NCBI GenBank assembly: GCA_964562405.1
Contig: CAZLTC010000003.1
Span: forward strand, 7,036 to 52,557
Source of the DNA: an uncultured bacterium
GTDB lineage: Bacteria > Joyebacterota > Joyebacteria > Joyebacterales > Joyebacteraceae
Direction of reading: 5' to 3'
Length of the DNA stretch: 45,522 bases
In this document: in pieces, positions 20,646 to 38,025 of the stretch
How positions within the stretch are numbered: position 1 is the stretch's first letter
Layout: each line of letters opens with the position of its first letter
Program-made: the position numbers and the translations under genes
The notes under the pieces: model-generated
Databases searched by the model: none
Seen by the model: only the letters and a program-made list of their open reading frames with translations
Told to the model about the DNA's origin: nothing

Positions 20646-20764
20646 CCTGCCTCCTTCCCTCGCACGCGCTGGACGAACGGGGAGCGCGCGAGCCCCGCTC
20701 ACTTCCATACATTAGTATACCATGTTCCGGCTTGTCAAGCACGCGCGGGCCTCAGCAGAGGCCA

Positions 20765-21672: not shown

Positions 21673-22628
21673 CGCCCGCGCGGATCATCATCGACGCCGA
21701 CACGGGTGTGGACGACGCGCTCGCTATCGTGCTCGCCGCCCATTCGCCGGGGCTGTCGGTCGCAGCCATCACGGCGGTCGCCGGCAACGCGGAGGTCGGC
21801 GAGTGTGCAAGGAACGCGCTGCTGCTCGCCGAGTCGCTCTGGCCCAACAGGACTCCGATCGTGTCTGAGGGCGCATCCGCCCCCCTCGACATACCGCTCA
21901 CGACGGCTCCGGAGGTTCACGGGGATGACGGACTTGGCGGATCGAGGGGCTCGCTTCGGCCGCCCCGCATGATCCGCGCGACGGCGCCGGCCCACGAACT
22001 CCTGCTCGAGCTGGCCAACATGGCGCCGGCTGAGCTGGTCCTCGTGGCCACCGGCCCCTTGACGAACCTCGCACTGGTGCACAGGGAGCATCCCGACGCC
22101 CTGGCCTTGTTCCGCCGGATCGTCGTGATGGGAGGCGCGTTCTCCGTCCCCGGCAACACCGGACCGGTCGCCGAGTTCAACTTCTACGTCGACCCGCTGG
22201 CCGCGGACACGGTCCTCGGGCTGGGACTCGACATCACCGTCGTTCCGCTCGATGTCACGACCACCGTAAGCGTAGCGCGCGACGAGCTGGACAAACTGCC
22301 CGCCTGGTCGGAGTCGCTCGACGCGAAACCGGGCACGCTTCCGGCGATCATCGCCAGAGCGCTCGACCACTACATCCGATACCAGTTCTCCGAATCGGGA
22401 TTGAACGCGGGGTACATGCACGACCCGGTGGCACTGTGCGCCGCCCTCGCGCCCGGACTCATCGGCACCCGGGAGATGGCCGTCCGCGTCGTGCTCGACG
22501 GGCCCGACCGCGGCCGCTCTGTCGAGGCCAATGACAGCCGCCCGCCCGTGCGGGTTGCGGTCAACGTTGACGCTACGGCGATGCGGGCGCTCATCCACAG
22601 GCGCGTGCTCGAGCCATTGTTCGGGTAG
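21669..22628 (+). CDS. Inosine/uridine-preferring nucleoside hydrolase
   Basis: DADTGVDDA, HGDDGLG, TGPLTNLA, AEFNFYVDP, MHDP; ATGA overlap with upstream gene. Confidence 0.92.
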   Translation: MTPARIIIDADTGVDDALAIVLAAHSPGLSVAAITAVAGNAEVGECARNALLLAESLWPNRTPIVSEGASAPLDIPLTTAPEVHGDDGLGGSRGSLRPPRMIRATAPAHELLLELANMAPAELVLVATGPLTNLALVHREHPDALALFRRIVVMGGAFSVPGNTGPVAEFNFYVDPLAADTVLGLGLDITVVPLDVTTTVSVARDELDKLPAWSESLDAKPGTLPAIIARALDHYIRYQFSESGLNAGYMHDPVALCAALAPGLIGTREMAVRVVLDGPDRGRSVEANDSRPPVRVAVNVDATAMRALIHRRVLEPLFG

Positions 22629-22704
22629 ACCGAACCCCGATCCTCCTCGCACGTGCTTGTCCGGTTGGGTCCCCCTAGGGCGGCCCGCTTCGCTTGGCAT
22701 CGCT

Positions 22705-22818
22705 GACGACGCGCGTTCATGCGCGTCGTCGCGCTGCACGCACGCCTACGGGGGACACCAACCGGACTCACCGCGCACATAGCCGAGCGGGGGTGGGATC
22801 TCTCCCACCCCCGCTCGG
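22705..22818. terminator. Two hairpins between convergent transcription units
   Basis: 10-bp stem 22705-22730 and perfect 16-bp stem 22783-22818 (GAGA loop on minus strand); no clear U-tract. Confidence 0.5.
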
Positions 22819-22847: not shown

Positions 22848-23453
22848 CTACCCCAGCCAGTCCTCCGTCAGGTAGACCTCCCGCCTGCAGGCCGGGCACA
22901 TGATCATGTAGGAGTCTTGGCGGCCGATCGGCTTGTCTTCCGGCCGAGCCGTCGGGTCCTGGGTCGCGCCGAAGCGCTGGTGAAGCGCCACCAGGAGCGT
23001 CGGGTTCGCGACCGCAAGCGAGCCGACCTTCCGCGCGATCCACTCCAGGTGTTCGCGGGTCGTGATCACATCGCCGCAGTGCTCGCAGCGAACGAGTTCT
23101 TTCTCGACCGACGTCACCGCCTGAGCCCTATCGAACACCGCCAGCGCAAAATTGTGCGAGAGCTGGATGCCCTTCTTGGTGGTGCACATCGCCTCGCACT
23201 GGCCGCAGTAGATGCAGTTGTCGAAGTGGTGAATGAGCGTCCGGGTGTCCCCCTCGTCGACCACGTCGATCGTCCTCGCCGGACACACCTCCGCGCACGC
23301 ACCGCAGCCTATGCAGTCCTCCTCGCTGTAGAGCGGCTGGCCGCGGAACGCCTCGGCCGGCTCCAGCGGCGTGAAGGGGAACGTGGTAGTGTACGGTCCC
23401 TTCACGACGGCGGTGAGGGCTTCCTTGAGTTCCCGAAGCTTCGGTTTCTTCAT
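22848..23453 (-). CDS. Hydrogenase 4Fe-4S subunit (NuoI/MbhN/HycF-like)
   Basis: FRG, CIGCGACAEVCP, CIYCGQCEAMC plus extra CEHC...CPAC. Confidence 0.88.
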   Translation of the reverse strand: MKKPKLRELKEALTAVVKGPYTTTFPFTPLEPAEAFRGQPLYSEEDCIGCGACAEVCPARTIDVVDEGDTRTLIHHFDNCIYCGQCEAMCTTKKGIQLSHNFALAVFDRAQAVTSVEKELVRCEHCGDVITTREHLEWIARKVGSLAVANPTLLVALHQRFGATQDPTARPEDKPIGRQDSYMIMCPACRREVYLTEDWLG

Positions 23454-23519
23454 CTCGGATAGTCTCCCCGGGGGATCTCACCCGCGAGCCGAAACGCCCG
23501 CGCGGGCCCTTGGGCCCCG

Positions 23520-23855
23520 CTAGTGCCCCACGTCCTCCCTGTACTTGTCGATAACGCTGCCGCGCCAGAGTGGCACGCCGGATAGGTGCGCGCCTCTCGC
23601 AAGTGCGTGGCTTCCCGTCGGCGAGGTCCACAGCACGAAGACCGCCGCCAGGAGCGCCTTGATGCCCATCGCCGACCAGCCACTATGGACGAGCACGCCG
23701 ACCAGGATGAGGCAGGTCCCCAGCGTCACGCACTTCGTCGCGGCCTGCAGCCTGTTGTAGACGTCGGGAAGACGGATGAGGCCGATGGCCCCGACGATAT
23801 CGAAGAACACGCCTATCGATATGAGGATGTACGGTGCGACTCCGCCGTTACTCAT
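23520..23855 (-). CDS. mrpG: Mrp antiporter subunit G (MbhC-like)
   Basis: GLIRLPDVYNRLQAATK, TSPTGSHALARGA. Confidence 0.9.
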   Translation of the reverse strand: MSNGGVAPYILISIGVFFDIVGAIGLIRLPDVYNRLQAATKCVTLGTCLILVGVLVHSGWSAMGIKALLAAVFVLWTSPTGSHALARGAHLSGVPLWRGSVIDKYREDVGH

Positions 23856-24102
23856 CGAATCCCCTCCCCTCCAGGTACTTCGCAAGAGCCAGCGTACCGA
23901 TGAAGGACAGGAGCGCCCATGCGATCGCCACGTTCAGGTAGTAGTCCTTGCCGGTGATGAGCCCGAACACCCCGCAGATCCCAACCACCATCACGCCGAT
24001 AGTGTCGATCGCCACTGCCCTGTCGGGAGCCGTCGGCCCCCTGGCCACCCGAAAGAGGCAGATGAATGTCCCGATGATCAGGAGCATAAGGAACGTCTGC
24101 AT
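23848..24102 (-). CDS. mrpF: Mrp antiporter subunit F (MbhB-like)
   Basis: GPTAPDRAVAID, LLSFIGTLALAKYL. Confidence 0.9.
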   Translation of the reverse strand: MQTFLMLLIIGTFICLFRVARGPTAPDRAVAIDTIGVMVVGICGVFGLITGKDYYLNVAIAWALLSFIGTLALAKYLEGRGFDE

Positions 24103-24605
24103 CAGTCGAAAACCCTCCTCAAGGTGACCTCGAAACGCCCGGCGATGTCCCGGGTCATTGCCTCCGTGTCCTCGAGATTCTCGTGAACGTTGATCCAGTG
24201 CACGTACAGCCAGTCGTCGATGATGTCGACCGTGAGCGTGCCGGGCGTCAGTGTGATCGAGTTCGCCAGGAACGTCTTGGCCTCATCGGTCTTGAGCGTC
24301 GTCTTGATCTTCACGATGCCGGGCCTGATCGGCATGTTCGGGTGGACCACCCGGTAGAGCACGTCGAAGTTAGCAAGGATGATCCAGAACGAAAGCGAGA
24401 TCATGTGCATGAGCGCCCAGAACCACCGCACCGGACTGAAGAGCCTCTCCACACGCCTGGGAAGCAGTCCCGAGAGCAGGAATGCGAACAGGACCGCGAT
24501 GACTGCCCCGACGATGACTCCCTGCACGTCGAGCGACCACGTGAGGAGCATCCACAGGGCGAAGATGATGATGAGATCGAGAAGTCTTCTTTTCAATCGT
24601 TCCAT
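24102..24605 (-). CDS. mrpE: Mrp antiporter subunit E (MbhA-like)
   Basis: PIRPGIV, LANSITLTPGTLTVD, LYVHWI. Confidence 0.92.
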   Translation of the reverse strand: MERLKRRLLDLIIIFALWMLLTWSLDVQGVIVGAVIAVLFAFLLSGLLPRRVERLFSPVRWFWALMHMISLSFWIILANFDVLYRVVHPNMPIRPGIVKIKTTLKTDEAKTFLANSITLTPGTLTVDIIDDWLYVHWINVHENLEDTEAMTRDIAGRFEVTLRRVFD

Positions 24606-24621
24606 CGGACTCTCCACCCCC

Positions 24622-26166
24622 CTAGCCGAGGACCAGCTTCACGTACTCAGCGCTGTTCAGAAGTGCATCCCTGGCCGGGCCGAGCATGCGCTCCCCGACC
24701 GCGGGCTGTGTGACGGCGAGTATTCCCAGGCCGACACAGACGATCGCAAGCAGGATCAGAGGAACGTACATCGCCGCGGGGACCTCGTGGGCCTTCTCGA
24801 CGCTCTTGCCGACGTCCCCGAAGATGATGTGCCTCTGCACCTTCACGTAGTACACCAGAGTCACGAACGCCATCGCGATGGCCACCCCGCCGATCGCGAA
24901 GTGCCCCGACTTGACGACCGCGACGATGATGATCAGCTTGCTCCAGAACCCGCTGAACGGTGGCACGCCGGCTATCGACAGCGCGGCCAGATTGGTCGTG
25001 GCGGCCGTTATCGGCATGCGCTCGCGCAGCCCGCCCAGGAGCTTCAGATCCCTCGTCCCGGTCGCGTACTGTATGGCGCCGGACGAGAGGAAGAGGAGCG
25101 ATTTGAACGACGCGTGGTTGATGAGATGGAAGAGCCCGCCGAAGATCGCCAGCGCCGCCAGTGAGCGTGACCCGCCCATCGCGAGGATCTTGGCTCCGAT
25201 GCCGAGCCCGAGCGTGACATAGCCTATCTGTCCGATCGAGCTGTACGCCAGGAGCCTCTTGAAGTCCCACTGCCCGACCGCCATGAGCCCGCCGAGCACT
25301 ATCGACATCACCGAGAAAGCGATCATCGCGTTGGCGATGATGAGCGAGCCCGGCTGCGTCGGGGCGAACCCGAACACGTTGAAGAACACGCGGCACATGG
25401 CGTAGACGCCGAGGCTCTTGATGACCACGCCCGACAGCATCGCCGATATCGGCGCCGGCGCCGACGGGTGCGCGTCCGGCAGCCACGCGTGGAACGGGAC
25501 GACCGCGGCCTTCAGCGCAAATCCCATCAGGAAGAGCGCGGACGCCAGCAGAAGCGCGGGATTCATCCCCGGTCCCGCCCACTTCGTGCTGATCTCCCTG
25601 GCGACGTCCGCCATGTTCAGCGACCCGGTGACCGCGTAGACGGTCCCGATCGCGAAGAGGATCATCACCGAAGCGACGCTCCCCAGGATCAGATACTTGA
25701 AGCCGGCCTCCAGCTCGTCTGCCTCGACTCCGAACGCGACCAGCGCGTACGAGGCGATCGACGCGACCTCCAGGAAGACGAAGAGGTTGAAGAGGTCGCC
25801 CGATATGACCACGCCGTTCATCCCCGCCACCATGAGCATGAAAAGCCCGTAGTACTTGTCGAGCCCCGTGTACTCCTTCATGTACTTGAGGGAGAAGATG
25901 ATGCACAGGAAGGCGATGACGTTGATGGCCACCAGAAGAAGGATGGAGAGCCCGTCCGCCACGACCGCAATGCCGATCGGCGCCACCCACTTCCCCATGT
26001 AGAGCACCGTCGCCGGCCCGCCTATCGCCATCAGCGCCATCACAGCCAGCACGGCCGTACTCGCGGTAGCCAGGACCTCACCGCTCTTCTTCCACCACAA
26101 TGCGAGCATCGGGATGAGAAACGCGGCCGCGAGCGGGATCGCTACATACAGCGGGATAAGGTTCAT
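24622..26166 (-). CDS. mrpD: Mrp subunit D / MbhH-like antiporter subunit
   Basis: GDLFNLFVFLEV, KAAVVPFHAWLPDAHPSAP, KRLLAYSS, GVPPFSGFWSK. Confidence 0.9.
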   Translation of the reverse strand: MNLIPLYVAIPLAAAFLIPMLALWWKKSGEVLATASTAVLAVMALMAIGGPATVLYMGKWVAPIGIAVVADGLSILLLVAINVIAFLCIIFSLKYMKEYTGLDKYYGLFMLMVAGMNGVVISGDLFNLFVFLEVASIASYALVAFGVEADELEAGFKYLILGSVASVMILFAIGTVYAVTGSLNMADVAREISTKWAGPGMNPALLLASALFLMGFALKAAVVPFHAWLPDAHPSAPAPISAMLSGVVIKSLGVYAMCRVFFNVFGFAPTQPGSLIIANAMIAFSVMSIVLGGLMAVGQWDFKRLLAYSSIGQIGYVTLGLGIGAKILAMGGSRSLAALAIFGGLFHLINHASFKSLLFLSSGAIQYATGTRDLKLLGGLRERMPITAATTNLAALSIAGVPPFSGFWSKLIIIVAVVKSGHFAIGGVAIAMAFVTLVYYVKVQRHIIFGDVGKSVEKAHEVPAAMYVPLILLAIVCVGLGILAVTQPAVGERMLGPARDALLNSAEYVKLVLG

Positions 26167-26169
26167 CGG

Positions 26170-26517
26170 CTATCCCCTCAGCTTGCTGATCTGTGACATG
26201 TCAAAGGTTCCGTGCTTCTCGTAGAGCCTGATGCACATGGACACCATTAGAGCGAGCACCCCCAGCCCGATGACGATGGACGTCAGCACGAGCGCCTGCG
26301 GAAGAGGATCGACGAACCGCGCCAGCATGCTGTCCGTTGTCCCCTTGTCGACGATCGGAGCCACCCCGTTGTGCTTGTACCCGATGATGATGAGGTAGAG
26401 GTTAACGGCGTAATCCATGATCACCACGCCGATGACCTTCTTGACGATGTTCTTCTTCGCCACGAGGCAATACAACCCCATCGTGAGCAGAACCACGCAC
26501 AGAAAGTAGACCGTCAT
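26170..26517 (-). CDS. mrpC: Mrp subunit C (MbhG-like)
   Basis: KNIVKKVIG, DPLPQALVLTSIVIG. Confidence 0.92.
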   Translation of the reverse strand: MTVYFLCVVLLTMGLYCLVAKKNIVKKVIGVVIMDYAVNLYLIIIGYKHNGVAPIVDKGTTDSMLARFVDPLPQALVLTSIVIGLGVLALMVSMCIRLYEKHGTFDMSQISKLRG

Positions 26518-26969
26518 GATAGCTCATCCTCGATCATGGACCTGAAGGAACGCCTGCGGAAGATGGCGAGCGCCGAGAAGACAAGGAAGAGCGACGTGCC
26601 GACCTTGAACGCGATGGCGATATTGATCGGGAGGATCATGCCGGCGCTCATGAGCCGGAACTGCTCTCCCCTCCCGAAGATGTTCATGAAGAAGTACCCG
26701 CCCGTGACACCCAGCCACCCGATGGTAAGGAACGCGAGCGCGCCCGCGGAGTCGAGCACGTGCGCCGTTCTCTCGCCGAGGCGGGAGAATGCGACCTCTT
26801 TGCCCTGAGCGAGCAGAAGGAGGATGAACGCGCAGGCGATGATGACGCCCCCGGCGAAGCCGCCGCCCGGTGTCAGGTGGCCGTACAGAACGATGTACGC
26901 GCCGAAGATGACGATGAAGGCGACGACGAAGTCGGTGATGGTCTTGACTATCAGCGTGAGTCCCTTCAT
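26514..26969 (-). CDS. mrpB: Mrp subunit B (MbhF-like)
   Basis: YGHLTPGGGFAGG motif. Confidence 0.9.
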   Translation of the reverse strand: MKGLTLIVKTITDFVVAFIVIFGAYIVLYGHLTPGGGFAGGVIIACAFILLLLAQGKEVAFSRLGERTAHVLDSAGALAFLTIGWLGVTGGYFFMNIFGRGEQFRLMSAGMILPINIAIAFKVGTSLFLVFSALAIFRRRSFRSMIEDELS

Positions 26970-27523
26970 GCCGTCGCCACCTCCCTCTTCGCTCTCTTCC
27001 CGTCCTTGCGGAGCAGAGCGAGCGCTCCAAGGATGGACCCGAACAGGACCGTCGCCTCCCCGAGCGTGTCGTATGCCCTGTAGTCGAGGATCACCGACGT
27101 CACGATGTTGGCGGCATGCGTCTCCGGGAGACCCCTCATCACGTACACCCTCGACACCCTCATGATCGGCTCTCCGAACTGCGGGAAGCCCTTGCTCCCG
27201 AAGATCATCGCGCCGAACCCCAGGATCAGTCCGAAGAAGATCAGTGAGACGATGACCGCCAGCGTGTCACGGTGCAGGTCGACGGCAGTGTTGTCGAGGA
27301 GAATGGTTCCCCTAATGAGGATGACGAGAACCAGAATCTCCACGACGAGCTGTGTGATCGCAATGTCGGGCGCCCCGAGGAACAGGAACGCAACCGACAG
27401 GGCGAACCCGACGGCGCTCACCGAGATCACGGCCGAAAGGAGGTTCCTGGTCTCAATGGCGACGATGGAGCCGATCACCATGAAGATCAGGAGCATGTAA
27501 AGCTGAGGAGTGATGTTTTCCAT
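26966..27523 (-). CDS. MbhD/MbhE-like fused subunit (MrpA C-terminal equivalent)
   Basis: LGAPDIAITQ and NIVTSVILDYRAYDTLGE motifs. Confidence 0.85.
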   Translation of the reverse strand: MENITPQLYMLLIFMVIGSIVAIETRNLLSAVISVSAVGFALSVAFLFLGAPDIAITQLVVEILVLVILIRGTILLDNTAVDLHRDTLAVIVSLIFFGLILGFGAMIFGSKGFPQFGEPIMRVSRVYVMRGLPETHAANIVTSVILDYRAYDTLGEATVLFGSILGALALLRKDGKRAKREVATA

Positions 27524-27582
27524 CTAGCGTCTCCCGCCTCTCGCCCATCCATGGAAGTACCACGTCAAAGAAACGTCTTCTG

Positions 27583-29478
27583 CTACTGCGCGTTCACAAG
27601 CTGCCTTAAGAGCGTGCTCAGAAGAGCGAACACGATGGCGCCCAGTCCGATCACGGCCCACGACAGATAAGTGGACAGGACGCCGTTGTGCAGCATCTTG
27701 AGGCCGTTGACGATGCCGCCTCCGAGCCTTCCTCCCAGCACGTAGACGTCGAACACTCGCTGCTCCGCGTTCGCGAAGAGCCCCGCCAGCCCCTTGGTCT
27801 CGCGAATCGTGTTGTAGAAGCCTGTTCCCGCCACGTGCATCGAGTCCATGCTCGCGGGGGGCCTCGTCCCTCCGATGAAGACGTGGCCGGTGCGCATCTT
27901 GGTCATCCTGCCGACCAGGAAGACCAGGAACCCGAAGACGAGACCCAGGAGGATCAGCGTCGTTGCGGTGCCCGGGCTCCAGAAGCCGATCGCGCCCAGG
28001 TCGAGCCCGCCGGTCGCGCTTACGCCGATGGCGCCGTGCACGATGGGGTTGATGAACCTGTCGATCGGGAACTTGGCCCAGACGCCGAACCCGATGCAGA
28101 GGATGGCCAGCACGATCATCGGGACCTGCATGGCCCACGGCGCCTCGTGCACGCGGCTGAACCTGCTCGGCTTCTGACCCAGGAAGGCCGAGTAGAGGAC
28201 CTTCACGAACGAGGCCAGTGTCAGCGCACTTCCGAAGAGCGCCGCGATCAGGAAGATCCAGTACGACGACACGCCCCGCGAACCGAGTTCGACGAGGCCC
28301 GAGTAGACCATCCACTTGGATACGAACCCGTTGAACGGCGGCACGCCGGAGATCGACACCGCAAAGATCGCGGTCGCGATGAATGTCACGGGCATGGCCC
28401 GAGCGAGGCCGCCCAGCTCCTTGAGTTCGGTCGTCCCGGTCTCCTTCTCGATCGAGCCGGCCGAGAGGAAGAGTCCGGCCTTGTAGATGGCGTTGTTCAG
28501 CATGTGGAAGAGACCGCCCGCGATGCCTATCGGGATGCCCGTCCCAATGCCAAGGATCATGTACCCGACCTGGCTCACCGCGTGGTATGAGAGCAGCACC
28601 TTGAGGTCGTGCTGGATGAGCGCCATCAGGACGGCGCCGACGATGGTCACGGCGCCTATGATCATGAGCAGCATCATCATGCCGAAGCCGACGCTGAAGA
28701 TATCGAGGCTGATGCGGGCCAGCAGATAAATGCCCAGAAGCTTGTCGATGGCGGCGGGCAGGAGCGCCATGACCGGCGTCGGCGCGCCCTTCGCCGCGGC
28801 GGGGATCCACGTGTGGAACGGCATGGCCCCGGCCTTGGTGATGGCGCCGATCATCATGAGAATGTAGATGGTGGTCGTCATGCCGTCGCCGACGAAGATG
28901 GAGAGCTTGTCCATCGAGACGGTGCCGTAGCGGGCCCAGATCATGGCTACGGCAATGAAGAGCGCCGCGTCCGAGAGCCCAAGCATGATGAAGCTCTTCG
29001 CCGCCCCCTCCGCCGCCTGCATCTTCTTCAGGCCGATGTTCACGTACACGAAGAGGATGGCCGTCAGCGCTTCCCAGAAGATAAGGAGCACGAGAAGGCT
29101 GTTCGACAGGGCCGCCCCGACGCTCGCCGCCACGGTCCACAGCAGGAACGCGTAGTAGCGCCTGCCGTCGTACTCACGCGTGAGCCACGAGATCGAGTAG
29201 AGGCCGACCCCTAACCCGAACAGCGCGATGAACAGGATGATGAACGCGCTGAACTGGGTCAGTAGAAGGTCGAACTGGATCGAAAGCCCTCCCAGAGCCA
29301 CCAGGTCCTTCACGTACGAAATCGGCCAGTGCCCGAAGAGCCGGAGCGCGGCCACGAACGTCCAGACGAGGGCGATCAGGCTCAACGTCTCCCGGACGCC
29401 CTTCACTCTTCTCGGAACGAGAAGACAGAGGCCGCCCGCCAGGGCCGGGACGACGATCGGTACGAGCAACTGTGGCAT
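27583..29478 (-). CDS. Second antiporter-like subunit (NuoL/MrpA/HyfB-type)
   Basis: Start MPQLLVPIVVP; IFWEAL, KAGAMPFHTWIP, LSYHAVSQVGY, GVPPFNGFVSKW. Confidence 0.88.
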   Translation of the reverse strand: MPQLLVPIVVPALAGGLCLLVPRRVKGVRETLSLIALVWTFVAALRLFGHWPISYVKDLVALGGLSIQFDLLLTQFSAFIILFIALFGLGVGLYSISWLTREYDGRRYYAFLLWTVAASVGAALSNSLLVLLIFWEALTAILFVYVNIGLKKMQAAEGAAKSFIMLGLSDAALFIAVAMIWARYGTVSMDKLSIFVGDGMTTTIYILMMIGAITKAGAMPFHTWIPAAAKGAPTPVMALLPAAIDKLLGIYLLARISLDIFSVGFGMMMLLMIIGAVTIVGAVLMALIQHDLKVLLSYHAVSQVGYMILGIGTGIPIGIAGGLFHMLNNAIYKAGLFLSAGSIEKETGTTELKELGGLARAMPVTFIATAIFAVSISGVPPFNGFVSKWMVYSGLVELGSRGVSSYWIFLIAALFGSALTLASFVKVLYSAFLGQKPSRFSRVHEAPWAMQVPMIVLAILCIGFGVWAKFPIDRFINPIVHGAIGVSATGGLDLGAIGFWSPGTATTLILLGLVFGFLVFLVGRMTKMRTGHVFIGGTRPPASMDSMHVAGTGFYNTIRETKGLAGLFANAEQRVFDVYVLGGRLGGGIVNGLKMLHNGVLSTYLSWAVIGLGAIVFALLSTLLRQLVNAQ

Positions 29479-29495
29479 CTCTCTACCCCCGGAGA

Positions 29496-30668
29496 CTAGG
29501 AGTTCCTCTTGAGCTCTTCGGTCTTGGCGTGCGAGAGCGCGATCAGGTCCTTGCCGGACATCGCCGGCCGCCCGTCGGGCCCGAGCACCGCCATGCGCTC
29601 CGTGCAGCTGTAGCACGGGTCGATGATGGCGAATATGAGGACGGCATCCGAGATCGACTCGCCCTTCACACGCGGCCTGAACGACGGGATGTTGCAGAAC
29701 GTCGGCGCCCTCATCTTGTGGCGCTCCGGCATGTTCGTCCCGTTGGACCTGATGAAGTGGAACGTCTCGCCGCGAGGCGCTTCGATGTGGCCGATGCCCT
29801 CGCCCCGCGGTATCTCGCGTACCTCGTTGGCGATGGGCCCGGACGGGAGCTTGTTGATGCACTGCTTGATGATCTTGACCGACTCGAGCATCTCGAGAAG
29901 GCGAACCGCGGCCACCGCCAGGCAGTCGCCGGCGGGCTGCACGATGACGTTCCAGTCGACCTCGGAGTAGGCGCCGTACGGCTCGTCTCGCCTGACGTCG
30001 ATGTCCACTCCGGAACCCCTCGCAGTCGGGCCCAGGGTGCCGTACGCGATGGCGTCCTCCTTCGTGAGGATGCCCACGCCCTTCAAGCGGCCGAGGATGA
30101 CCGGGTCGTCGAGGATGGCGTGTAACAGCATCTCGGTCTGCGCGGCGAACTCGTCCATGGCCTTCAGGACGCCCGGCCAGACATCGTCGGGCACGTCGCG
30201 CCTGACGCCGCCAGGGCGGTACCACGCGTAGTTGTTTCTGTTGCCTGTTATGGCCTCGAGCGCGTCCAGAACGGGCTCGCGGTACTTCCAGCCCCACATG
30301 AATACGGTCCAGTACCCGAGGATGTGCCCGCCGAGACCGACCCAGAGCATGTGGCTGTGAAGTCTCTCCAGCTCGTGCACGATTGTGCGCAGGTAGCGCG
30401 CGCGGTCGGTCGGGCCTACGCCGGCGATGTCCTCCATCGCCCTGCAGGCCGCCCAGGCGTGCGAGGCCGAGCAGATGCCACAGATCCTCTCGACGAGGAA
30501 CGTGTCCTGGTCGTAGGTCTTCTCCTGCGCGAGCAGCTCGATGCCCCTGTGGATGCGCCCGAGGTCGATGTCGGCGTCCTCTACCGTCTCACCGTCCACG
30601 TAGAGCGAAATGTACTCCGGTTCCTCAAGGACGGGATGGAACGGGCCGATCGGTATGAGCGTGCTCAT
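29496..30668 (-). CDS. Group 4 [NiFe]-hydrogenase large subunit
   Basis: GPFHP; L1 ERICGICSASH; EAPRGE; L2 DPCYSCTER followed by a 32-aa C-terminal extension. Confidence 0.93.
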   Translation of the reverse strand: MSTLIPIGPFHPVLEEPEYISLYVDGETVEDADIDLGRIHRGIELLAQEKTYDQDTFLVERICGICSASHAWAACRAMEDIAGVGPTDRARYLRTIVHELERLHSHMLWVGLGGHILGYWTVFMWGWKYREPVLDALEAITGNRNNYAWYRPGGVRRDVPDDVWPGVLKAMDEFAAQTEMLLHAILDDPVILGRLKGVGILTKEDAIAYGTLGPTARGSGVDIDVRRDEPYGAYSEVDWNVIVQPAGDCLAVAAVRLLEMLESVKIIKQCINKLPSGPIANEVREIPRGEGIGHIEAPRGETFHFIRSNGTNMPERHKMRAPTFCNIPSFRPRVKGESISDAVLIFAIIDPCYSCTERMAVLGPDGRPAMSGKDLIALSHAKTEELKRNS

Positions 30669-31097
30669 CTACTCGTCCCTCCTCATCGCGTGGAAGTCGG
30701 CGGGGCGATCGTGCGAGGAGAGTATCTTCCGGGGGTCCGGGTGTCCGGTGAACTCTACCCCCAGGAAGTCGTAGATCTCTCGCTCGATGAAATCCGCTGC
30801 TGGATAGTACTTTGCCAGGGAGTCGATCTTCGGGAACGGCTTGTCCAGCGTCGTCCTTATGTTCACGACCGTTCCGTCCCTGTCGATGGCGAAGTGATAC
30901 AGAAGCTCCACACCCGTGCTCCTGTCGCTGCCCGTCGCGGTCGCCAACCTCCCGTGCGCCACCTCGTACATGTGCCTCGTCACGGGGATCCAGTCGTCGT
31001 TCGAAACGGTGACGAACGCGCGGCGCTCGTTCCGCTCGAAGATGTCGACACGGTCCCCGAACTTGGCCTTGAGTCCCTCAAGAACTTGCTTGCTCAT
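30669..31097 (-). CDS. NuoC/MbhK-like hydrogenase subunit
   Basis: ELLYHF, EREIYDFLGVEFTGHPDPR. Confidence 0.9.
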   Translation of the reverse strand: MSKQVLEGLKAKFGDRVDIFERNERRAFVTVSNDDWIPVTRHMYEVAHGRLATATGSDRSTGVELLYHFAIDRDGTVVNIRTTLDKPFPKIDSLAKYYPAADFIEREIYDFLGVEFTGHPDPRKILSSHDRPADFHAMRRDE

Positions 31098-31150
31098 TGT
31101 CTCGTCACTCCCCTGGCCGTAACCGTGCGGTCAGCGCGGCAGGCTCGCCC

Positions 31151-31564
31151 CTAGAGCTTCCCAATGAGTTTGACGATGCCATCTATGATCGCCTCGGGCC
31201 TCGGGGGACAACCTGGAACGTATGCGTCCACGGGGATGTGCTTGTCGACAGGCCCCGCGAAGTTGTAGCCGTCTTTGAAGATGCCGCCGGTGCAGCCGCA
31301 CGCGCCCAGGGCGACGACCGCCACGGGCTTCGGCGCCTGCTCGTAGGCCTCGATGAGCTGCGGCACGACCTTGCGAGGAACACTTCCCGACACGAGGAGA
31401 ACGTCGGCGTGCTTGACGCTCCCAACGAGCTTGATGCCGAAGCGCTCCACGTCGTACTTCGGGCACAGGCAGTCAAGGACTTCTATGTCGCAGTTGTTGC
31501 AGGCTCCGGCGTTCAGGTGGAAGACCCACAGCGACTTCTTGAATCCCCATTTGGTAGCACCCAT
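31151..31564 (-). CDS. Group 4 hydrogenase small subunit (NuoB/MbhJ-like)
   Basis: CNNCDIE, YDVERFG, GAC, PGCPPRPE. Confidence 0.93.
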   Translation of the reverse strand: MGATKWGFKKSLWVFHLNAGACNNCDIEVLDCLCPKYDVERFGIKLVGSVKHADVLLVSGSVPRKVVPQLIEAYEQAPKPVAVVALGACGCTGGIFKDGYNFAGPVDKHIPVDAYVPGCPPRPEAIIDGIVKLIGKL

Positions 31565-31585
31565 TCGTTCACCGCTCCGTTCGAT

Positions 31586-32524
31586 CTAGAACCCCGCTAT
31601 CGCGAAAACCATGCCGATGATGGCGAGGACGGTGACAGGTCCCCAGAAGAAACGCACGGCCTGGTCGATCCTCACCCTGGGATTCGTGTTCTTTATGAGT
31701 ACCGCGACGGTCACGATGATCACGTACTTGACGATCGTGTAGAGCAGACCCCACCCGGTCAGCTGCAGGCCGCCCCAGAAGATGGTGATGAAGAGAATGG
31801 GCAGCGTGAAGAGCATCATCGCCTGGGTGACCTTCACGACGGCCAGCGCCGGGCCCGAGTACTCCATGTGCGTCCCGTCCATCAGCTCGGTCTCCGCCTC
31901 CGGAATGTCGAAGGGCGGGTAGGTAAGCTTGGCCTGCATGCAGAGCAGGCAAACGATGAACGCGATGATGCAGGACGGGTTGCCGAGCAGGACGCCGTGA
32001 GCATCCTGGTAGTTGATGATGGCGTCCAGCCTGAGCGTCATCGGCGAGATCTTCGTGACGGCCGTGAAGATGGCGATCACAAAGGGTAGCTCGTAGGCCA
32101 GCACCAGCTTCATCTCCCGGCTCGCGCCCACGCTCGATAGCGGATTGGACGAGGCGGACGCGCCGATGATCATCCCGAGAGACGGGATGGTGAGCAGATA
32201 GATGACCGCGATCAGGTCGCCCACGAACCCGACATCCTTCATGTTCGTGAGCCACAGCAGCATCGACACGACACCGACCGCCGCGAGACCGGCCAGAGGG
32301 GCCAGCAGGAACCCGGTCCTCTTCGCGCCCTCGGGGATCACGATCTCCTTCCCCATTAGCTTGAGGATGTCCGCGAAGGGCTGATACCACGGTGGTCCGA
32401 CCCTCCACTGCACACGCGCGCTGACCTTCCTGTCCACCCACGTGGTCAGAAGGCCGACCGCGGCCGTGAACAAGAGGCCTGGGAAGATCAGGAAGTAGAA
32501 AACCATGCTCAGTGTCGAAGCCAT
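31586..32524 (-). CDS. NuoH/MbhM/HycD-like membrane anchor
   Basis: DRKVSARVQWRVGPPWYQPFADILKL, PFDIPEAETEL, PRVRIDQ. Confidence 0.92.
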   Translation of the reverse strand: MASTLSMVFYFLIFPGLLFTAAVGLLTTWVDRKVSARVQWRVGPPWYQPFADILKLMGKEIVIPEGAKRTGFLLAPLAGLAAVGVVSMLLWLTNMKDVGFVGDLIAVIYLLTIPSLGMIIGASASSNPLSSVGASREMKLVLAYELPFVIAIFTAVTKISPMTLRLDAIINYQDAHGVLLGNPSCIIAFIVCLLCMQAKLTYPPFDIPEAETELMDGTHMEYSGPALAVVKVTQAMMLFTLPILFITIFWGGLQLTGWGLLYTIVKYVIIVTVAVLIKNTNPRVRIDQAVRFFWGPVTVLAIIGMVFAIAGF

Positions 32525-32572
32525 CCTGTTACCTCTCCGTTGGTCCTAGCGAAGCATCCGGAACCGAGAGCC

Positions 32573-33055
32573 CTAGCGCTGACGCCGCACCGTCTTCTCC
32601 ACGGAACGACCGCCCCTCATCGGTCTGCCTTTCTGAGCCTCGATGTCGCTTATGTCCTCGAAGGTCCTCGCCCCCGACACGCACGTCCCGGCGCACATCG
32701 AGTCCTTACCGTCGAGCGTCCGCCAGCTGCAGAGGTCGCACTTGGGCATCGTGTGGCGTGTCTTGATGAGGTCGATGGCCCCGAACGGGCACGCCTGCGC
32801 GCACGACGTGCAGCCGCTGCACTTGATATTGCTGCGGATCACGAGCCCGTCGTCCCGCCGCTTGATGGCCTCCTGCGGGCACGCGGCCTCGCAGAGGGGC
32901 TGCTCGCAGTGCCTGCAGTTCATCTGCAGCACCGTGTTAACCAGAACCTGCGAGGCCTCGAGATGATCCTGGTCGTTGTGAGAATAGAAGCACGCCGCGA
33001 TACAGCTCCTGCAGCTGATGCAGCGTCCGTAGTCCAGGACATTCCTCTTGTTCAT
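32573..33055 (-). CDS. Multi-4Fe-4S electron transfer protein (HydN/HycB/FdhB-like)
   Basis: CISCRSCIAAC, CRHCEQPLCEAACP, CSGCTSCAQACPFG, KCDLC...CAGTC. Confidence 0.88.
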   Translation of the reverse strand: MNKRNVLDYGRCISCRSCIAACFYSHNDQDHLEASQVLVNTVLQMNCRHCEQPLCEAACPQEAIKRRDDGLVIRSNIKCSGCTSCAQACPFGAIDLIKTRHTMPKCDLCSWRTLDGKDSMCAGTCVSGARTFEDISDIEAQKGRPMRGGRSVEKTVRRQR

Positions 33056-33109
33056 CCAGATCTCCCGGTATGAGCGGCGCGGGCGGTCAAGACCCCACGC
33101 CCACACCTT

Positions 33110-34792
33110 CTACGCCTCGGCCGTCACCTTCGCCCTGGAGGCGGAAACGTCGAACCACCTCGTGCTCGGATTGGCCGTCCACTTCAGAAGACCCCTGGCG
33201 TCGGGCACGTAGCTCGGAATCGCTACAAGGCCGCCGGGCATCCTGCTCGTGACTATCGCGATGATGCGTGTCTCGCCACGGTCGGTCGAGAGTGACACCG
33301 TGGACCCCTGTTCAACCTCGAGGTCGCCTGCGGCGCCCTCGCCGATCCAGATCTCGCAGTACGGCGAGATCGACTGGGCGAAGCTCATGCGTCCCGTTAT
33401 GGTGCCGTCCCATCTGTGGAGCGGGCTTATGCCCTCGACGAGACAGAGCTCGCCGTCCTTCGACGAGGCGGGACGACTCAGCGCGCCGGCGACGTCGACC
33501 TGGAGCGGCGGGTGCTCCGCTACCGCAACCTTGCCCAACGTCGCGCCTAGCTCTTTCGCGATCGCCGCGAGCATCTCGCGGACCGGGGCCGCGTCGCCCT
33601 GGGGCGCCGTGACCGGCGACACCGAGGTTGCAATCCCGAAGGACGCCGAATAGCTCCCCTCGATCTCGGTCCACACCGCCTGTGGCAATCCCACGTCACT
33701 GTGCTTCGTCACGTCGTTCTCGAACACCGACGACGCGACGAGAAGCTCGAGCCCCTCGACATCGTCTGCGCCGAGCGCGCCGGGATACAGCTGAAGGATA
33801 TCGGGGCCGAGAACAAGCAGCCCCTTTATGGTTCCATCGGACACACCCTTGAGGATCTCAGGCACCGTCCGTGCCGAGCCGACGCGCTCGAACGCGCCTA
33901 TCGCGTTGCCCCCTCGGAAGAGCGGCGCGTACTTGCCGCCAACGGCCTTCGCGAGATCGGACGCGAGCTTACCAATGAGATATCCGGACGTCGAGTCTCC
34001 GAGTCTGGAGGAGGCCATGACCACGACCTTCCCCTGCTCCTTGATATGCTTGGCAAGCGACACAAACTCGCGCTCAGACATGCCCGCGGCTTCCGCCGCT
34101 TTCGCCGCCGATACGTCCGGGGCACCCTGCGTGTTCATCGCGCGGAGCAATCCGCCCAGCACCACGGGCTCGGCGCCCGGGGCGGGCGTCATCTGCCTGT
34201 CGGCGAACCAGTCGGTGTTGCTGCGATACGGGTTGATCGTGAAGATGCGGTTCGAGCGTGTGCGGTGGCGCGCCTCGATGACGCGCTTGGCGATGCACGG
34301 GTGGCCCCAGAAGACGTCGCCTATCAGGATGAAGCACTCACCGGCGTCCACATCCTCGGGGGTCGCGTCGCCCGCCCCGCCTCCCATGAGGAGGGGAAAG
34401 TCGTTGCCGTCGTAGGCGACGGCTATGTTGCTGGTCCCGAGCGAAGCTGCGAACGACGCGGCCGCCTCGTAATCCTCGTTGGAAAGCTCGGTCCCGACGA
34501 TCACGCCCAGCGCTTCGCCGCCCTTGCTCTCCTTTATCTCGACAAGCTTGCCCGCGGCCTTGGTCACACCGCTCGCCCACGGAACCCTTCGCCTGTTGAC
34601 CGTCGCCGCGAGGAACCTCTTGGGGTGCGTCAGCAGCTCGTGGTTGTAGTGTCCGCGGACGCACAGCGCGCCCCGGTTCTGACGCGCCTCGGGATCGAAA
34701 TCGACCCGGACAGGTACGCCCGCGTCCACCTCCATCGCGAACCCGCACTGGAGGGAACAGAAGAGACACGACGCCTTCTTGATCTCTGGCAT
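33110..34792 (-). CDS. Molybdopterin-oxidoreductase-fold protein (FdhA/NuoG-like), probably non-catalytic
   Basis: N-terminal CLFCSLQC...LCVRG 4Fe-4S motif, SNED, WTEIEGSY, C-terminal molydop-binding-like domain; no Cys/Sec-His at the FDH active-site position. Confidence 0.75.
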   Translation of the reverse strand: MPEIKKASCLFCSLQCGFAMEVDAGVPVRVDFDPEARQNRGALCVRGHYNHELLTHPKRFLAATVNRRRVPWASGVTKAAGKLVEIKESKGGEALGVIVGTELSNEDYEAAASFAASLGTSNIAVAYDGNDFPLLMGGGAGDATPEDVDAGECFILIGDVFWGHPCIAKRVIEARHRTRSNRIFTINPYRSNTDWFADRQMTPAPGAEPVVLGGLLRAMNTQGAPDVSAAKAAEAAGMSEREFVSLAKHIKEQGKVVVMASSRLGDSTSGYLIGKLASDLAKAVGGKYAPLFRGGNAIGAFERVGSARTVPEILKGVSDGTIKGLLVLGPDILQLYPGALGADDVEGLELLVASSVFENDVTKHSDVGLPQAVWTEIEGSYSASFGIATSVSPVTAPQGDAAPVREMLAAIAKELGATLGKVAVAEHPPLQVDVAGALSRPASSKDGELCLVEGISPLHRWDGTITGRMSFAQSISPYCEIWIGEGAAGDLEVEQGSTVSLSTDRGETRIIAIVTSRMPGGLVAIPSYVPDARGLLKWTANPSTRWFDVSASRAKVTAEA

Positions 34793-34820
34793 GTCGGTTA
34801 ACCTCTCAAGCGAGAAGCCC

Positions 34821-35666
34821 CTAGAACGGATCTTCGAACTTCGCCACCTGCGCCGCGGTCATGACGGGGCCGTCCTTGCAGATGTAGTGCTCGCCCATCA
34901 TGCAGTGCCCGCACTTGCCGAGCCCGCAGCTCATGTTCCGCTCCATCGAGTGATAGATGTTCTCGGGCTTGAAGCCTTTCTGGAGAAGCACCATGTTCAC
35001 GAACTTGAGCATGATCGGAGGCCCGCATACACACGCCACGGCGCTCGGGGCGTGGAACGGAAGCTCCTCGACGTCGACCGTCGTTATCATGGGCAGGCCG
35101 TCCAGCAGCACGGTCACGACGCCGACCGTGCCTTTCCACTCGGGATGCGGCTCGTCTATAGTAAGGAGGACCTCGGTGTTCTTCTTCTTCTCCCACTCGG
35201 GGAGCAGGTCCTTGTAGACGATGTCCTCCGGTGTCCTGGAGCCGTAGCGTATCGAGATCTTCTTGAACTTGTCGATCTCGTCGAAGAGCGCGAGGATGAG
35301 CGAACGCAGCGGCGCCAGGCCGACGCCGCCTCCCACGATGAGGATCTCCTTGCCGTAGAAGTCCTGCATATTGTAGCCGTTGCCGTACGGGCCGCGGATC
35401 CCGACCGTGTCCCCCACCTTCATCTTCTCGAGCGCCTGCGTCACTGCCCCCACGCGCATGATGGTGATCTCGAGGGTGTCCTTCACGTTGGGGTTGGATG
35501 ACGGCGTGAACGGCGCCTCGCCGACTCCCGGCACGGTCAGCTCGACGAACTGGCCGGCCTCGAACGTGACCGGCTCCTTGGGACGGAACCGATACGTCGT
35601 GATGTTCGGCGTCTCGGGCTTGATATCCTCGATCACGCTCTCGATTGGCCTGTACAGATTCTTCAT
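34821..35666 (-). CDS. FAD/NAD(P)-binding 2Fe-2S oxidoreductase (AsrB/HydG/FlxA-like)
   Basis: GQFV...GEAP, RGPYGNG, GGGVGLAPLRS, CGPPIM, ERNMSCGLGKCGHC...CKDGPV; ATGA overlap. Confidence 0.9.
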   Translation of the reverse strand: MKNLYRPIESVIEDIKPETPNITTYRFRPKEPVTFEAGQFVELTVPGVGEAPFTPSSNPNVKDTLEITIMRVGAVTQALEKMKVGDTVGIRGPYGNGYNMQDFYGKEILIVGGGVGLAPLRSLILALFDEIDKFKKISIRYGSRTPEDIVYKDLLPEWEKKKNTEVLLTIDEPHPEWKGTVGVVTVLLDGLPMITTVDVEELPFHAPSAVACVCGPPIMLKFVNMVLLQKGFKPENIYHSMERNMSCGLGKCGHCMMGEHYICKDGPVMTAAQVAKFEDPF

Positions 35667-36730
35667 GCCTTCGCCTTCTCCGTGAGGACGTGCTTGATGG
35701 CCTCTCTCATGTCGATCCTGCCCATGCACACGTCGATGCATCTGCCGCACCCGGTGCACGTAACGAGGCCGTATCTGTCTCGCGTGTACTCGAACTTGCA
35801 GCGAAGTCTGTTGCGCAGTCTCTCGGCGAGCGCGGGCCTGGAGTTCCCGCCGCCTCCGGTTCGCGCGAAGCCGATGGACAGGCAGGTGTCCCAGTTGCGC
35901 GTGCGCTCGTATCCGCCCGTGGCGCGCTGGTCTACCAGCAGGAAGCACGTGCAGGTCGGGCAGCATCGATTGCAGGCCGAGCAGGCCACGCAGTTCTGGG
36001 TCACCTCCATCCAGGACTCGAGCGTCCCTTCGAGGTCGTACTTGTCGTACTGCTCGTCGACCGCGAACTCGGCGTTGTGGCGGTTGATCGCCTCGGCCAC
36101 CGAATTGCGATTGCGATTGCGCTCGTCGAGATGCTCGGGACGGACCTCCATGAGCAGGTCGTCGTTCCCGGCCAGAAGCTTTTCGCCCTTCTCGGAACCG
36201 ACCGTCACGATGAAGCCCGACTCGATCGGGGCGAGATTCAGGTCGAACCCGTCCTTGGGATAAGGCTCGCCGCCGACGCGCGTGCAGAAGCAGGTCTCCT
36301 TGGCCGCGGTGCAGTCGAGCGACACGATGAACGCATTCTCACGCTTCTCGATGTAGAACGGGTCGTCGTACTCCTCGGTGAAGTACTTCGTGCTCCAGTA
36401 GACCTTGTCGAACTTCTGGAGTCCTCTGACGTCGCAGGCCCTCGGCCCAACGATGACCGTCGACGGCGCATCCACGTGCGCCTCAGCTTCACTCGACGGG
36501 TACTTCGCGACGACCTCGCGTGGGTAGAAGAGGAACGACTTGGGAGGATGAGCGGGCGCCGCGCCCTGGAGGTGCACGTTCTCTGGAACCACGTCGCCGA
36601 CGAGCTCGTAGTCGGGCGTCTCCTCGTGGTTCATGATGTCGAACGTCACCGGGACGTAGACGCGATGGTCCTTGGCCCACCTCCCGATCAGCTTCAAGAG
36701 GTTCTCTCTTCCGATGAAGACTTCTCTCAT
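35663..36730 (-). CDS. 4Fe-4S subunit (AsrA/HydB-like)
   Basis: RACD, DPFY, CFC, CVACSACNRCCPTCTCF, RNWDTC, CTGCGRCIDVC. Confidence 0.9.
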   Translation of the reverse strand: MREVFIGRENLLKLIGRWAKDHRVYVPVTFDIMNHEETPDYELVGDVVPENVHLQGAAPAHPPKSFLFYPREVVAKYPSSEAEAHVDAPSTVIVGPRACDVRGLQKFDKVYWSTKYFTEEYDDPFYIEKRENAFIVSLDCTAAKETCFCTRVGGEPYPKDGFDLNLAPIESGFIVTVGSEKGEKLLAGNDDLLMEVRPEHLDERNRNRNSVAEAINRHNAEFAVDEQYDKYDLEGTLESWMEVTQNCVACSACNRCCPTCTCFLLVDQRATGGYERTRNWDTCLSIGFARTGGGGNSRPALAERLRNRLRCKFEYTRDRYGLVTCTGCGRCIDVCMGRIDMREAIKHVLTEKAKA

Positions 36731-36895
36731 CGTGCCATGCCCTCTCAGTTTGGAGTGACGCGACAGTCGCTTCCGGGCCCGGTGCTCACGTAGGAGCGGC
36801 GCGCGACCCTCATCCGTCCCCGGCCATGCAGAGACCCCGCGCCGCTCCCGTATCGGGAACGGGCCCGGGGTCAGATCATATGCCGCGCGCGGGCA

Positions 36896-36950
36896 GAAAA
36901 AGGCGTGACGCCCAAGCCTGCAAGTAACACTCAGCCCTTCCACTGATTGC
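36896..36950 (-). ncRNA. Candidate Na+-I (DUF1646-like) riboswitch with intrinsic terminator
   Basis: RNA AUCAGUGGAAGGGCUGAGUGUUACUUGCAGGCUUGGGCGUCACGCCUUUUUC: P1 UCAGU/GCUGA with purine loop, CAGG..UUGGG element, GGGCG/CGCCU hairpin plus U-run; located 5' of an Mrp operon. Family match is from recollection of the consensus, not computed. Confidence 0.6.
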
Positions 36951-37019
36951 TGCTCGCGGGTCGAACGAAGCCCCAACCTCTGCGAAGATAGTACCGGGTC
37001 GGGGATTATGGTCACAGGG

Positions 37020-37049
37020 AGTTTATCGTCGGAAGCTCATATGCGTCAA
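37020..37049 (-). promoter_or_regulatory. Sigma70-type promoter of the hydrogenase/Mrp operon
   Basis: TTGACG-N18-TAAACT; implies a ~280-nt leader. Confidence 0.55.
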
Positions 37050-37080
37050 GCGTAAAGACCCGCATGTTCCCGGAGGCGGA

Positions 37081-38025
37081 CTACTCCTTGGGAGAGAGGA
37101 ATCTGAGGTCGAGCGCGCCGTCGCCGGCCTTCTTGTCGAACACGTACTTGCGCACGCGCGCGAGGACCTTCTCCATGGTCTCCAGATACATGCGCTCCCG
37201 AACTGCCGACGGGGTCTTCCGGTATTCGGTGCTTATCGCGCGGAAGCGCTGCGCTTCGCCCTCCGCCCTCGAGATCTTCTCTGAACGGTAGCCGGTCGCT
37301 GATGCGAGAAGACCCGCCGCATCGCCCCTTGCGGTGGGAACGACGCGGTTCTGGTATCCCTCCGCCTCCTGGATGATCCTGTTCCGGTCCTCGCGGGCGC
37401 TCGCGACCTCTCTGAACGCGTCGGCGACCTCGCGCGGAGGGTTGGTCTCCTGCAGGTGCGCGGCCACGATCTCGATGCCCGCGCCGTACTCGTCCAGCAC
37501 CACCTGCGCTCGCTCCTTAACGGCGGTGGCTATCTCGACCCTCGCGGTCGTGAGGATATCATCGACCGGCATGCGGCTGATCTTCTCGGTGAGCACGGAC
37601 TCGCCGACACGCCTCACCAGCCAGTGCGGCTCCTCACAGGCGAACAGAAAGTTCTCGGGGGACTTGACGACGTACTGTATCAGAAGCTGTATCTCTATGA
37701 TGTTCTCATCGCCCGTGACGAACTGGGCCTCGCGCGGCTCGGGTGTCAGTCCGCGAAGCTGGTCTATGATCTTGTAGCCCACGCTCATGCGCTTGATCGA
37801 GGTCACCTGCGGCGTATCAACGACATCGACCGGCCAGGGGATCCTGTAGTGGATCCCGGGCGCTACCGACGATCGGACCACGCGACCGAATCGGCGTACG
37901 ACCCCTCGCTCATCCGACTGGACTACGTAGATGCCGGAGAGGAGATACAGACCGACTGCCGCGAGAAGGGTCAGCCGCGCCATCCGCCTCACGCGCGAGA
38001 ACCCGGCCGACATGTCGGAGCGCAT
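37081..38025 (-). CDS. hflK: HflK (SPFH) FtsH modulator
   Basis: GVVRRFGR, PGIHYRIPWP, TGDENI, PPREVADAFREVASARED, ARGDA, RMYLETME; start uncertain. Confidence 0.88.
   Translation of the reverse strand: MRSDMSAGFSRVRRMARLTLLAAVGLYLLSGIYVVQSDERGVVRRFGRVVRSSVAPGIHYRIPWPVDVVDTPQVTSIKRMSVGYKIIDQLRGLTPEPREAQFVTGDENIIEIQLLIQYVVKSPENFLFACEEPHWLVRRVGESVLTEKISRMPVDDILTTARVEIATAVKERAQVVLDEYGAGIEIVAAHLQETNPPREVADAFREVASAREDRNRIIQEAEGYQNRVVPTARGDAAGLLASATGYRSEKISRAEGEAQRFRAISTEYRKTPSAVRERMYLETMEKVLARVRKYVFDKKAGDGALDLRFLSPKE

Follow-up and report, generated by a model that had tools for sequence, protein, structure and literature searches.

The leader of the hun hydrogenase operon described here carries a previously undescribed cis-regulatory leader RNA motif, which is of a familiar kind and has a narrow taxonomic range (Candidatus Eisenbacteria). 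It is composed of an irregular 52-nt hairpin with a strongly conserved sequence (the core hairpin, or hairpin 1) and, further downstream, of a very stable GC-rich terminator-like hairpin (hairpin 2). This element is probably a functional, lineage-specific and cis-acting leader RNA of the operon; the more specific proposal that it governs read-through into the hun genes is, in our estimation, evenly balanced. The hairpin element matched none of the 4227 families of Rfam 15 and no description of it came up in full-text searches on Eisenbacteria hydrogenases and DUF1646 riboswitches. Likewise, no description of an RNA leader controlling a group 4 hydrogenase complex was found in the literature on NiFe-hydrogenase riboswitches and leaders, covered at abstract level. 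DNA-binding proteins account for most of what is known about how group 4 hydrogenases are regulated, and Hun complexes, which are found widely in subsurface bacteria, are biochemically uncharacterised. A conserved control element indicates that the Hun complex is tightly gated by the cell, and the leader RNA, being accessible to in vitro work even though the organisms are uncultured, provides an experimental handle on the inducing signal.

The hun operon and the layout of its leader

In the window (the whole stretch of 45,522 nucleotides that was analysed), the order of features on the minus strand is the stop codon of an SPFH/Band_7 gene (37081), a promoter-like site, a leader of ~283 nt and the ATG that opens the operon (Table 1). 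Analysis with Pfam, NCBIfam and translation bore out the hydrogenase/Mrp operon of the first-pass annotation, including its count of 17 genes. Judged against passages of Glass et al. 2021, the gene content is that of a Hun-type group 4 [NiFe]-hydrogenase: a single cluster unites HunAB (AsrAB-like), Mrp-like subunits and a group 4 core whose large subunit bears the two CxxC motifs. Both cysteine motifs of the [NiFe] large subunit are present (RICGICSASH and DPCYSC). In those passages (bioRxiv 10.1101/536078), the same gene set is presented as a predicted hydrogenase-Na+/H+ antiporter complex, Hun.

Table 1. Features of the leader and of the hun operon in the window
Feature	Position	Strand	Basis
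Sigma-70-like promoter: -35 TTGACG (37049-37044), 18-nt spacer, -10 TAAACT (37025-37020)	37020..37049	(-)	motif scan
5'-proximal hairpin P0, CCCCGACC...GGUUGGGG	36971..37004	(-)	fold -14.4 kcal/mol, z -1.41
Conserved irregular 52-nt hairpin (core hairpin, hairpin 1)	36913..36964	(-)	covariance model R1, 76.1 bits
CAGGCUUGGG, quoted in the first-pass annotation; present	36920-36911	(-)	
GGGCG-UCA-CGCCU hairpin (36913-36901) and U-run (to 36896)	36896..36913	(-)	genus-specific part of variable spacer
GC-rich terminator-like hairpin (hairpin 2), GACCCCG.GCC.GUUCCCG-AUA-CGGGAGC.GGC.CGGGGUC	36833..36872	(-)	fold and covariation
Tail after hairpin 2, UCUGCAUGG	36832-36824	(-)	sequence
Shine-Dalgarno GAGAGGG	36746-36740	(-)	first gene, HunA/ShyB-like
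ATG start codon of first gene	36730-36728	(-)	protein homology starts at residue 1
17-gene Hun-type operon	22848..36730	(-)	Pfam, NCBIfam and translation
Operon genes 1-4: HunA/ShyB-like (AsrA-like) Fe-S protein, AsrB/HydG-like FAD/NAD protein, truncated Fdh-alpha-like molybdopterin-domain protein, 4Fe-4S protein			
Operon genes 5-8: NuoH-like subunit, small subunit (NuoB-like), 30-kDa subunit (NuoC-like), [NiFe] large subunit			
Operon genes 9-17: MrpA/NuoL-like, MbhD/E, MnhB, MnhC, MrpD, MrpE, MrpF, MrpG, NuoI/HycF-like Fe-S protein			

Several genes of the region called for separate remarks. The large subunit (29496-30668, minus strand) scored near NuoD models, with 315.9 bits vs a cut-off of 360. 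The MrpA/NuoL-like gene (27583-29499, minus strand) was obscured by overlapping ORFs: a 538-aa ORF at 27524-29140 is without family match, and the frame of a 904-aa ORF, read from 29499, corresponds to Proton_antipo_M (185 bits). Family matches are likewise lacking for the two ORFs (21552-22739 and 21151-21552) that directly follow the operon. Also 3' of the operon are genes for a 1023-aa TPR-CHAT protein and a lamin-tail-domain protein (15415-18486 and 20052-20708, both on the minus strand).

The start of the first gene is well delimited, residue 1 of the ATG-initiated protein coinciding with the start of homology in 22 of the 23 related loci (the contig of the 23rd ends before the gene). A longer ORF from a GTG at 37015 was rejected as the true gene since the ATG at 36730 marks the onset of homology. 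Several genera (L012-L020; window equivalent 36731-36756) display, ~25 nt ahead of the start codon, a small hairpin, CAAGC-GAGAGG-GCUUG, which holds the Shine-Dalgarno sequence in its loop. This hairpin repeats the GCGAG...CUUGC letters found at the base of the core hairpin and is missing in the window's genus.

The promoter and the ~280-nt leader proposed at first pass are both present. TTGACG/TAAACT is the only sigma-70-like site between 36500 and 37400, where 0.1 would be expected, and the predicted transcription start lies near 37013. A site of the form TTGAC[AG]-N17/18-TAnnnT occurred 52-71 nt 5' of the core hairpin in 36 out of 36 unique related leaders, and a hunA-like gene was found 150-270 nt 3' of this hairpin wherever the contig allowed the check. 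The region of P0 was hairpin-like across genera, with a sequence differing between genera (alignment A1). At the other end of the leader, the distance between hairpin 2 and the ATG was reduced to 56 nt in one genus. This leaves no room for a second promoter and, together with the conservation of the promoter in all 36 leaders, means that transcription of the operon must cross both hairpins.

Two conserved hairpins and the spacer between them

The paired part of the core hairpin (36917-36960) reads CC.GCGAG.AGCA.UCAGU, loop GGAAGG, GCUGA.UGUU.CUUGC.GG, with three 1x1 mismatches, and folds with -19.1 kcal/mol (z -1.88). The hairpin UCAGU-GGAAGG-GCUGA reported at first pass (36946-36931) is present far beyond chance and proved to be the apex of this longer structure. 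When the leader DNA was searched against relatives, 22 of the family's 24 other genomes gave matches. In genera other than that of the window, one block of ~48 nt upstream of the gene start matched with 82-96% identity, the remaining leader having diverged.

A covariance model, R1, was built from 26 unique copies of the core hairpin. It gave exactly one match in the window's genome (76.1 bits) and one match per genome in 30 of the 31 genomes of the family; a query of the whole phylum (Candidatus Eisenbacteria) returned the same 31 genomes. None of 120 genomes from other families gave a match (E<=0.01, stricter filters), including 18 that possess a HunA/ShyB-like homologue with 31-41% identity. 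When 185,579 species genomes were scanned with a strict motif, 23 loci emerged, each from a genome labelled Candidatus Eisenbacteria or from an unclassified MAG, and a metagenome scan contributed 10 further loci, corresponding to 7 new unique leaders. These two collection scans required the exact motif of the 3' strand, on which the 36-sequence alignments were anchored as well, and the unbiased denominators are those of the 31 genomes. The hairpin was followed on its 3' side by a hunA-like gene in 22 of the 23 genome loci and in 7/7 new metagenome leaders, the remaining contig ending too early.

Conservation was distributed unevenly over the core. Its 3' strand, TGTTACTTGCNGG, was exact in 29 of 30 genomes, the sole exception carrying a C-to-T substitution by which a G-C pair becomes G-U. 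With 23 distinct rows and 16 pairs (368 cells), core alignment A3 had 97.8% of its cells in standard pairs and 8 cells unpaired. Seven pairs varied on one side only, always from A-U to G-U or from C-G to U-G (28 cells); one G-U pair was kept in 22 of the 23 rows and no pair was changed on both sides. The 5' strand varied solely by pairing-preserving changes. Mismatch and internal-loop positions varied freely, transversions included. The structure of the core stem rests on one-sided changes because no double-compensatory pair occurred. As evidence this is weaker than compensatory changes; the substitution pattern nevertheless fits a folded RNA, and a symmetric DNA operator poorly. To this extent the first-pass annotation is borne out: a structured, RNA-like element is conserved before orthologous operons, which makes a cis-regulatory role plausible.

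Among the 31 genomes, a single one (G005, 100% complete) lacked the core; it kept the promoter (TTGACA) and the operon, and hairpin 2 was also missing. Its leader (L076, G005:C13:44236-46435, 1240-1500) consists of ~200 nt of unrelated sequence.

Three other identities were considered for the core and rejected. A repeat element is ruled out by the fact that both hairpins are single-copy in the genome. A leader peptide or small ORF does not agree with the lack of ATG, the TGA found in two frames and an invariance at the nucleotide level. A CsrA-type GGA loop was dismissed since the loop is without GGA in several genomes.

Hairpin 2, which had been overlooked at first pass, is the conserved terminator-like element of the leader, and not the GGGCG-UCA-CGCCU hairpin with its U-run. 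It folded with -34.7 kcal/mol (z -4.11), and none of 200 shuffles did as well. Compensatory changes, with both sides altered, were recorded for 8 of its 13 pairs, and 94.7% of the cells were paired in the 36 leaders. For the whole structure, 58 cells were changed on both sides vs 13.9 +/- 3.1 in shuffles, a count that none of 500 shuffles reached; controls slid by 1-3 columns were 34-46% paired vs 96.5% for the true structure. The U-tract after hairpin 2 is short: most relatives display UUUCUGUGUG as the tail, the window has a U-poor UCUCUGCAU instead, and the terminator scan did not flag hairpin 2.

The spacer between the two hairpins measured 40-47 nt (52 nt in one case) in 36/36 leaders, despite a diverging sequence. 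It is in this spacer that the first-pass annotation had placed its terminator. The letters of GGGCG-UCA-CGCCU and of the U-run are there, and their folding did not rise above chance: -8.9 kcal/mol, z -1.45, with 22 of 200 shuffles equally good, and one terminator-like site found by the scan vs 0.6 +/- 1.0 expected. Both are recognisable only within the window's genus (g1) and are replaced by unrelated sequence in other genera. The spacer of 11 of the 36 leaders (e.g. L072, L006) contains CAGGAUCACC, with a 16S 3'-end-like AGGA(Y)CA motif, which we take to resemble the 3' end of 16S rRNA; it is absent from the window.

Proposed control of read-through into the operon and competing explanations

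The read-through proposal may be set out as follows. Transcription would begin at the conserved promoter, near 37013, and the nascent leader would form the sequence-conserved 52-nt hairpin. After a spacer of fixed length, the very stable GC-rich hairpin 2, with a short U-rich tail, would fold and could stop or stall RNA polymerase ahead of the operon. An effector would recognise hairpin 1 through its invariant 3' strand and GAAAGG-type loop, and would set the amount of transcription passing hairpin 2. For this role we favour a protein, or the transcription complex itself, over a small ligand, on the model of nut/put/LoaP-type leaders, because the stem letters are invariant, the internal loops are variable and there is no competing helix. 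Conservation, an RNA-type pattern of substitutions, the location within the leader and the joint presence of the two hairpins are what the comparison shows; termination at hairpin 2, its modulation by hairpin 1 and the kind of effector involved are points that we infer, since no conserved antiterminator pairing was found.

The search for such a pairing was carried out with the 5' half of hairpin 2 blocked. The 3' half then paired with different partners from genome to genome and no common alternative emerged; hairpin 2 itself was better than the alternatives by 9-21 kcal/mol. A P1-like helix joining the flanking CGACCC to the 5' half of hairpin 2 appeared in 22 of 36 truncated folds and was retained as no more than speculation, being weak (-2.5 to -12 kcal/mol) and devoid of covariation. 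Sequestration of the Shine-Dalgarno sequence by a conserved pairing was equally ruled out, as the leader segment that pairs best with the ribosome-binding region differs between genomes. No consistent complement was seen when alignments A2 and A4 were inspected by eye for pyrimidine tracts, in the spacer or hairpin 2, that might form a pseudoknot with the GAAAGG loop. A search for a NusG paralog of the RfaH/LoaP type gave one PF02357 match only, in a genome that is 94.65% complete, and no candidate binding protein for the hairpin was identified.

The best placed of the competing explanations, though a rather unlikely one, sees here a riboswitch of a new class, responding to a small molecule or an ion. 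Its aptamer would be the 52-nt hairpin, possibly together with the spacer, and a ligand, which could be linked to the enzyme (Na+, Ni, a redox cofactor or formate), would decide termination at hairpin 2. Single-hairpin riboswitch classes exist, and the layout of a leader RNA followed at a fixed distance by a terminator-like hairpin speaks for such a switch. Yet the combination of invariant stem letters and variable internal loops is the reverse of a typical aptamer, hairpins 1 and 2 show neither overlap nor conserved competing pairing, no Rfam family was matched and there is no pointer to any particular ligand.

A further argument in favour of a riboswitch comes from Rex. HunA-like loci elsewhere adjoin Rex or Rex-box-like sites: a Rex gene (NCBIfam, 205 bits) stands directly 5' of the HunA-like gene in one genome (G136; L100, G136:C22:3350-4000), and two TTGTGA-N6-TCACAA-like boxes were seen by eye before that of another (G067; L098, G067:C2:24600-25300). 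In a third (G141; L099), neither a Rex gene nor a Rex-box-like palindrome was seen upstream. The upstream regions of these three HunA/ShyB-like genes, which belong to other phyla, are short and AT-rich. The Rex N-terminal domain was present in only 7 of the 31 Eisenbacteria genomes and in 0 of 5 from the window's genus, and the Rex operator had no match in the window at up to 2 mismatches. Since Rex accompanies HunA-like loci elsewhere and is scarce in Eisenbacteria, an RNA could have taken over metabolite sensing. With three loci examined, candidates for full hun operons, this hints that redox state, and not Na+, is the usual input for operons of this type.

On a broader view, the element might represent a new, Eisenbacteria-confined class of regulatory RNA that gates an energy-converting hydrogenase. 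It would act either as a riboswitch for an enzyme-linked signal (the state of a redox cofactor, Na+ or Ni), in place of the Rex-type protein control seen beside HunA-like genes elsewhere, or as a put/nut-like RNA that makes polymerase terminator-resistant over the 14-kb operon. This is put forward tentatively, as a possibility rather than an expectation.

An element of mRNA stability or processing, without control of read-through, seems improbable. The hairpins would in that case shield the 5' end of the 14-kb transcript (e.g. from RNase E) or define it (e.g. by forming an RNase III site). The great stability of both hairpins, the lack of a switch pairing and the length of the operon mRNA would all be accommodated. 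Protection alone, however, accounts neither for the 3' strand and loop of hairpin 1 being invariant base by base nor for the fixed spacing.

We consider it very unlikely that the conserved block acts as a DNA operator, in which the imperfect inverted repeat AACAnTCAG-N8-CTGAnTGTT would bind a transcription factor and block elongation. Its invariant sequence, its dyad symmetry and its occurrence once per genome before one operon are in line with such a site. The site, however, lies ~50-100 nt downstream of the inferred transcription start, and its arms tolerate exactly those changes that RNA pairing allows (A-U/G-U) and that break DNA symmetry, one G-U position being itself conserved. Conservation is furthermore asymmetric between the arms, and the window is without Rex-type box.

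Even less credit is given to an independent trans-acting sRNA of ~180 nt, extending from the promoter to hairpin 2, with the operon expressed only by leakage. A promoter, a structured RNA and a strong 3' hairpin do resemble an sRNA gene, but the element always lies directly upstream of hunA, at a distance of as little as 56 nt and with no second promoter before the ATG, and the genome lacking the element (G005) uses the same promoter for its operon.

The original proposal, a Na+-I (DUF1646) riboswitch acting through the GGGCG-UCA-CGCCU/U-run terminator, retains almost no credibility in spite of its apparent fit with the operon, which includes an Mrp-type Na+/H+ antiporter module. Hun is predicted to move H+/Na+ in passages of Glass et al. 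2021 (bioRxiv 10.1101/536078), and passages of PMC9337991 describe the Na+-I class as acting through terminators. The covariance-model check was negative all the same. No family among the 4227 of Rfam 15 matched the whole window at gathering score in cmscan, and a permissive scan of 36650-37150 (E<=10) retrieved four chance-level matches only (mir-674 twice, SNORD66 and TP73-AS1). At E<=10 over the whole genome, RF03071 (Sodium) had nothing on the window's contig, its best matches being of 16.2 and 13 bits on other contigs vs a cut-off of 40.5; in control genomes, it gave one match above cut-off. Likewise, RF03057 (nhaA-I) had nothing on the window's contig, the best match elsewhere in the genome reaching 20.5 bits vs a cut-off of 37.

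The anatomy differs as well. Na+-I riboswitches are described in passages of PMC9337991 as made of two extended stems, of which P1 has conserved nucleotides at its base and P2 in its loop, and as having a terminator stem whose formation excludes the aptamer's P2 (an ON switch). Here, the conserved part is one hairpin of 16-18 bp, and the second hairpin of the proposed pair is confined to one genus. The switch formerly suggested, with the U-run terminator and an alternative AGGC/GCCU pairing, found no support. No overlap of aptamer and terminator was seen in the leaders, the terminator-like hairpin lying 40-52 nt downstream with no conserved competing pairing. In the main text of PMC9337991, the word 'hydrogenase' has no occurrence. 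Membership of the Na+-I class is rejected, and nothing in the leader analysis points to Na+ as signal or coupling ion. A tempting mis-annotation is thereby corrected: there is no support here for Na+ as the coupling ion.

Comparison with known systems

The operon closely resembles the Hun operons of Glass et al. 2021 (bioRxiv 10.1101/536078), as presented in passages of that paper. It shares with them the AsrA/B-like HunAB, an optional molybdopterin-domain protein, the group 4 [NiFe] core and the Mrp-like subunits, as well as the gene order and the CGIC motif at L1 of the large subunit. It departs from them at L2, which is CYSC here vs CYCC in the Atribacteria HunG. A leader RNA is absent from the description in those passages, where 'promoter' has 0 occurrences.

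With Na+-I riboswitches (RF03071), the element has in common that it is a small structured RNA of a 5' leader; according to passages of PMC9337991, that class acts on transcription termination and some of its members precede bioenergetic or Na+-related genes. In contrast, the present element consists of one long hairpin, has no covariance-model match and does not overlap with the terminator-like hairpin. It also occurs in a different phylum, those listed in the same passages being Firmicutes, Proteobacteria, Acidobacteria and Verrucomicrobia.

Classical attenuators and the expression platforms of riboswitches display the same succession of promoter, conserved structure, GC-rich hairpin with a U-containing tail and first gene. 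They differ by a conserved competing antiterminator helix, which was sought here and not found.

A last comparison concerns the leaders of processive antitermination systems (lambda nut/BoxB, HK022 put, EAR and LoaP-dependent leaders). The present element is distinguished from them by the absence of any Rfam match (any such families held by Rfam included) and of a second NusG-family gene in a genome that is 94.65% complete. Leaders of the nut, put and LoaP types comprise a sequence-specific hairpin in the leader of a very long operon, then a terminator, and no switch by alternative pairing. The likeness lies in that same arrangement of a specific hairpin, a long operon and then a terminator.
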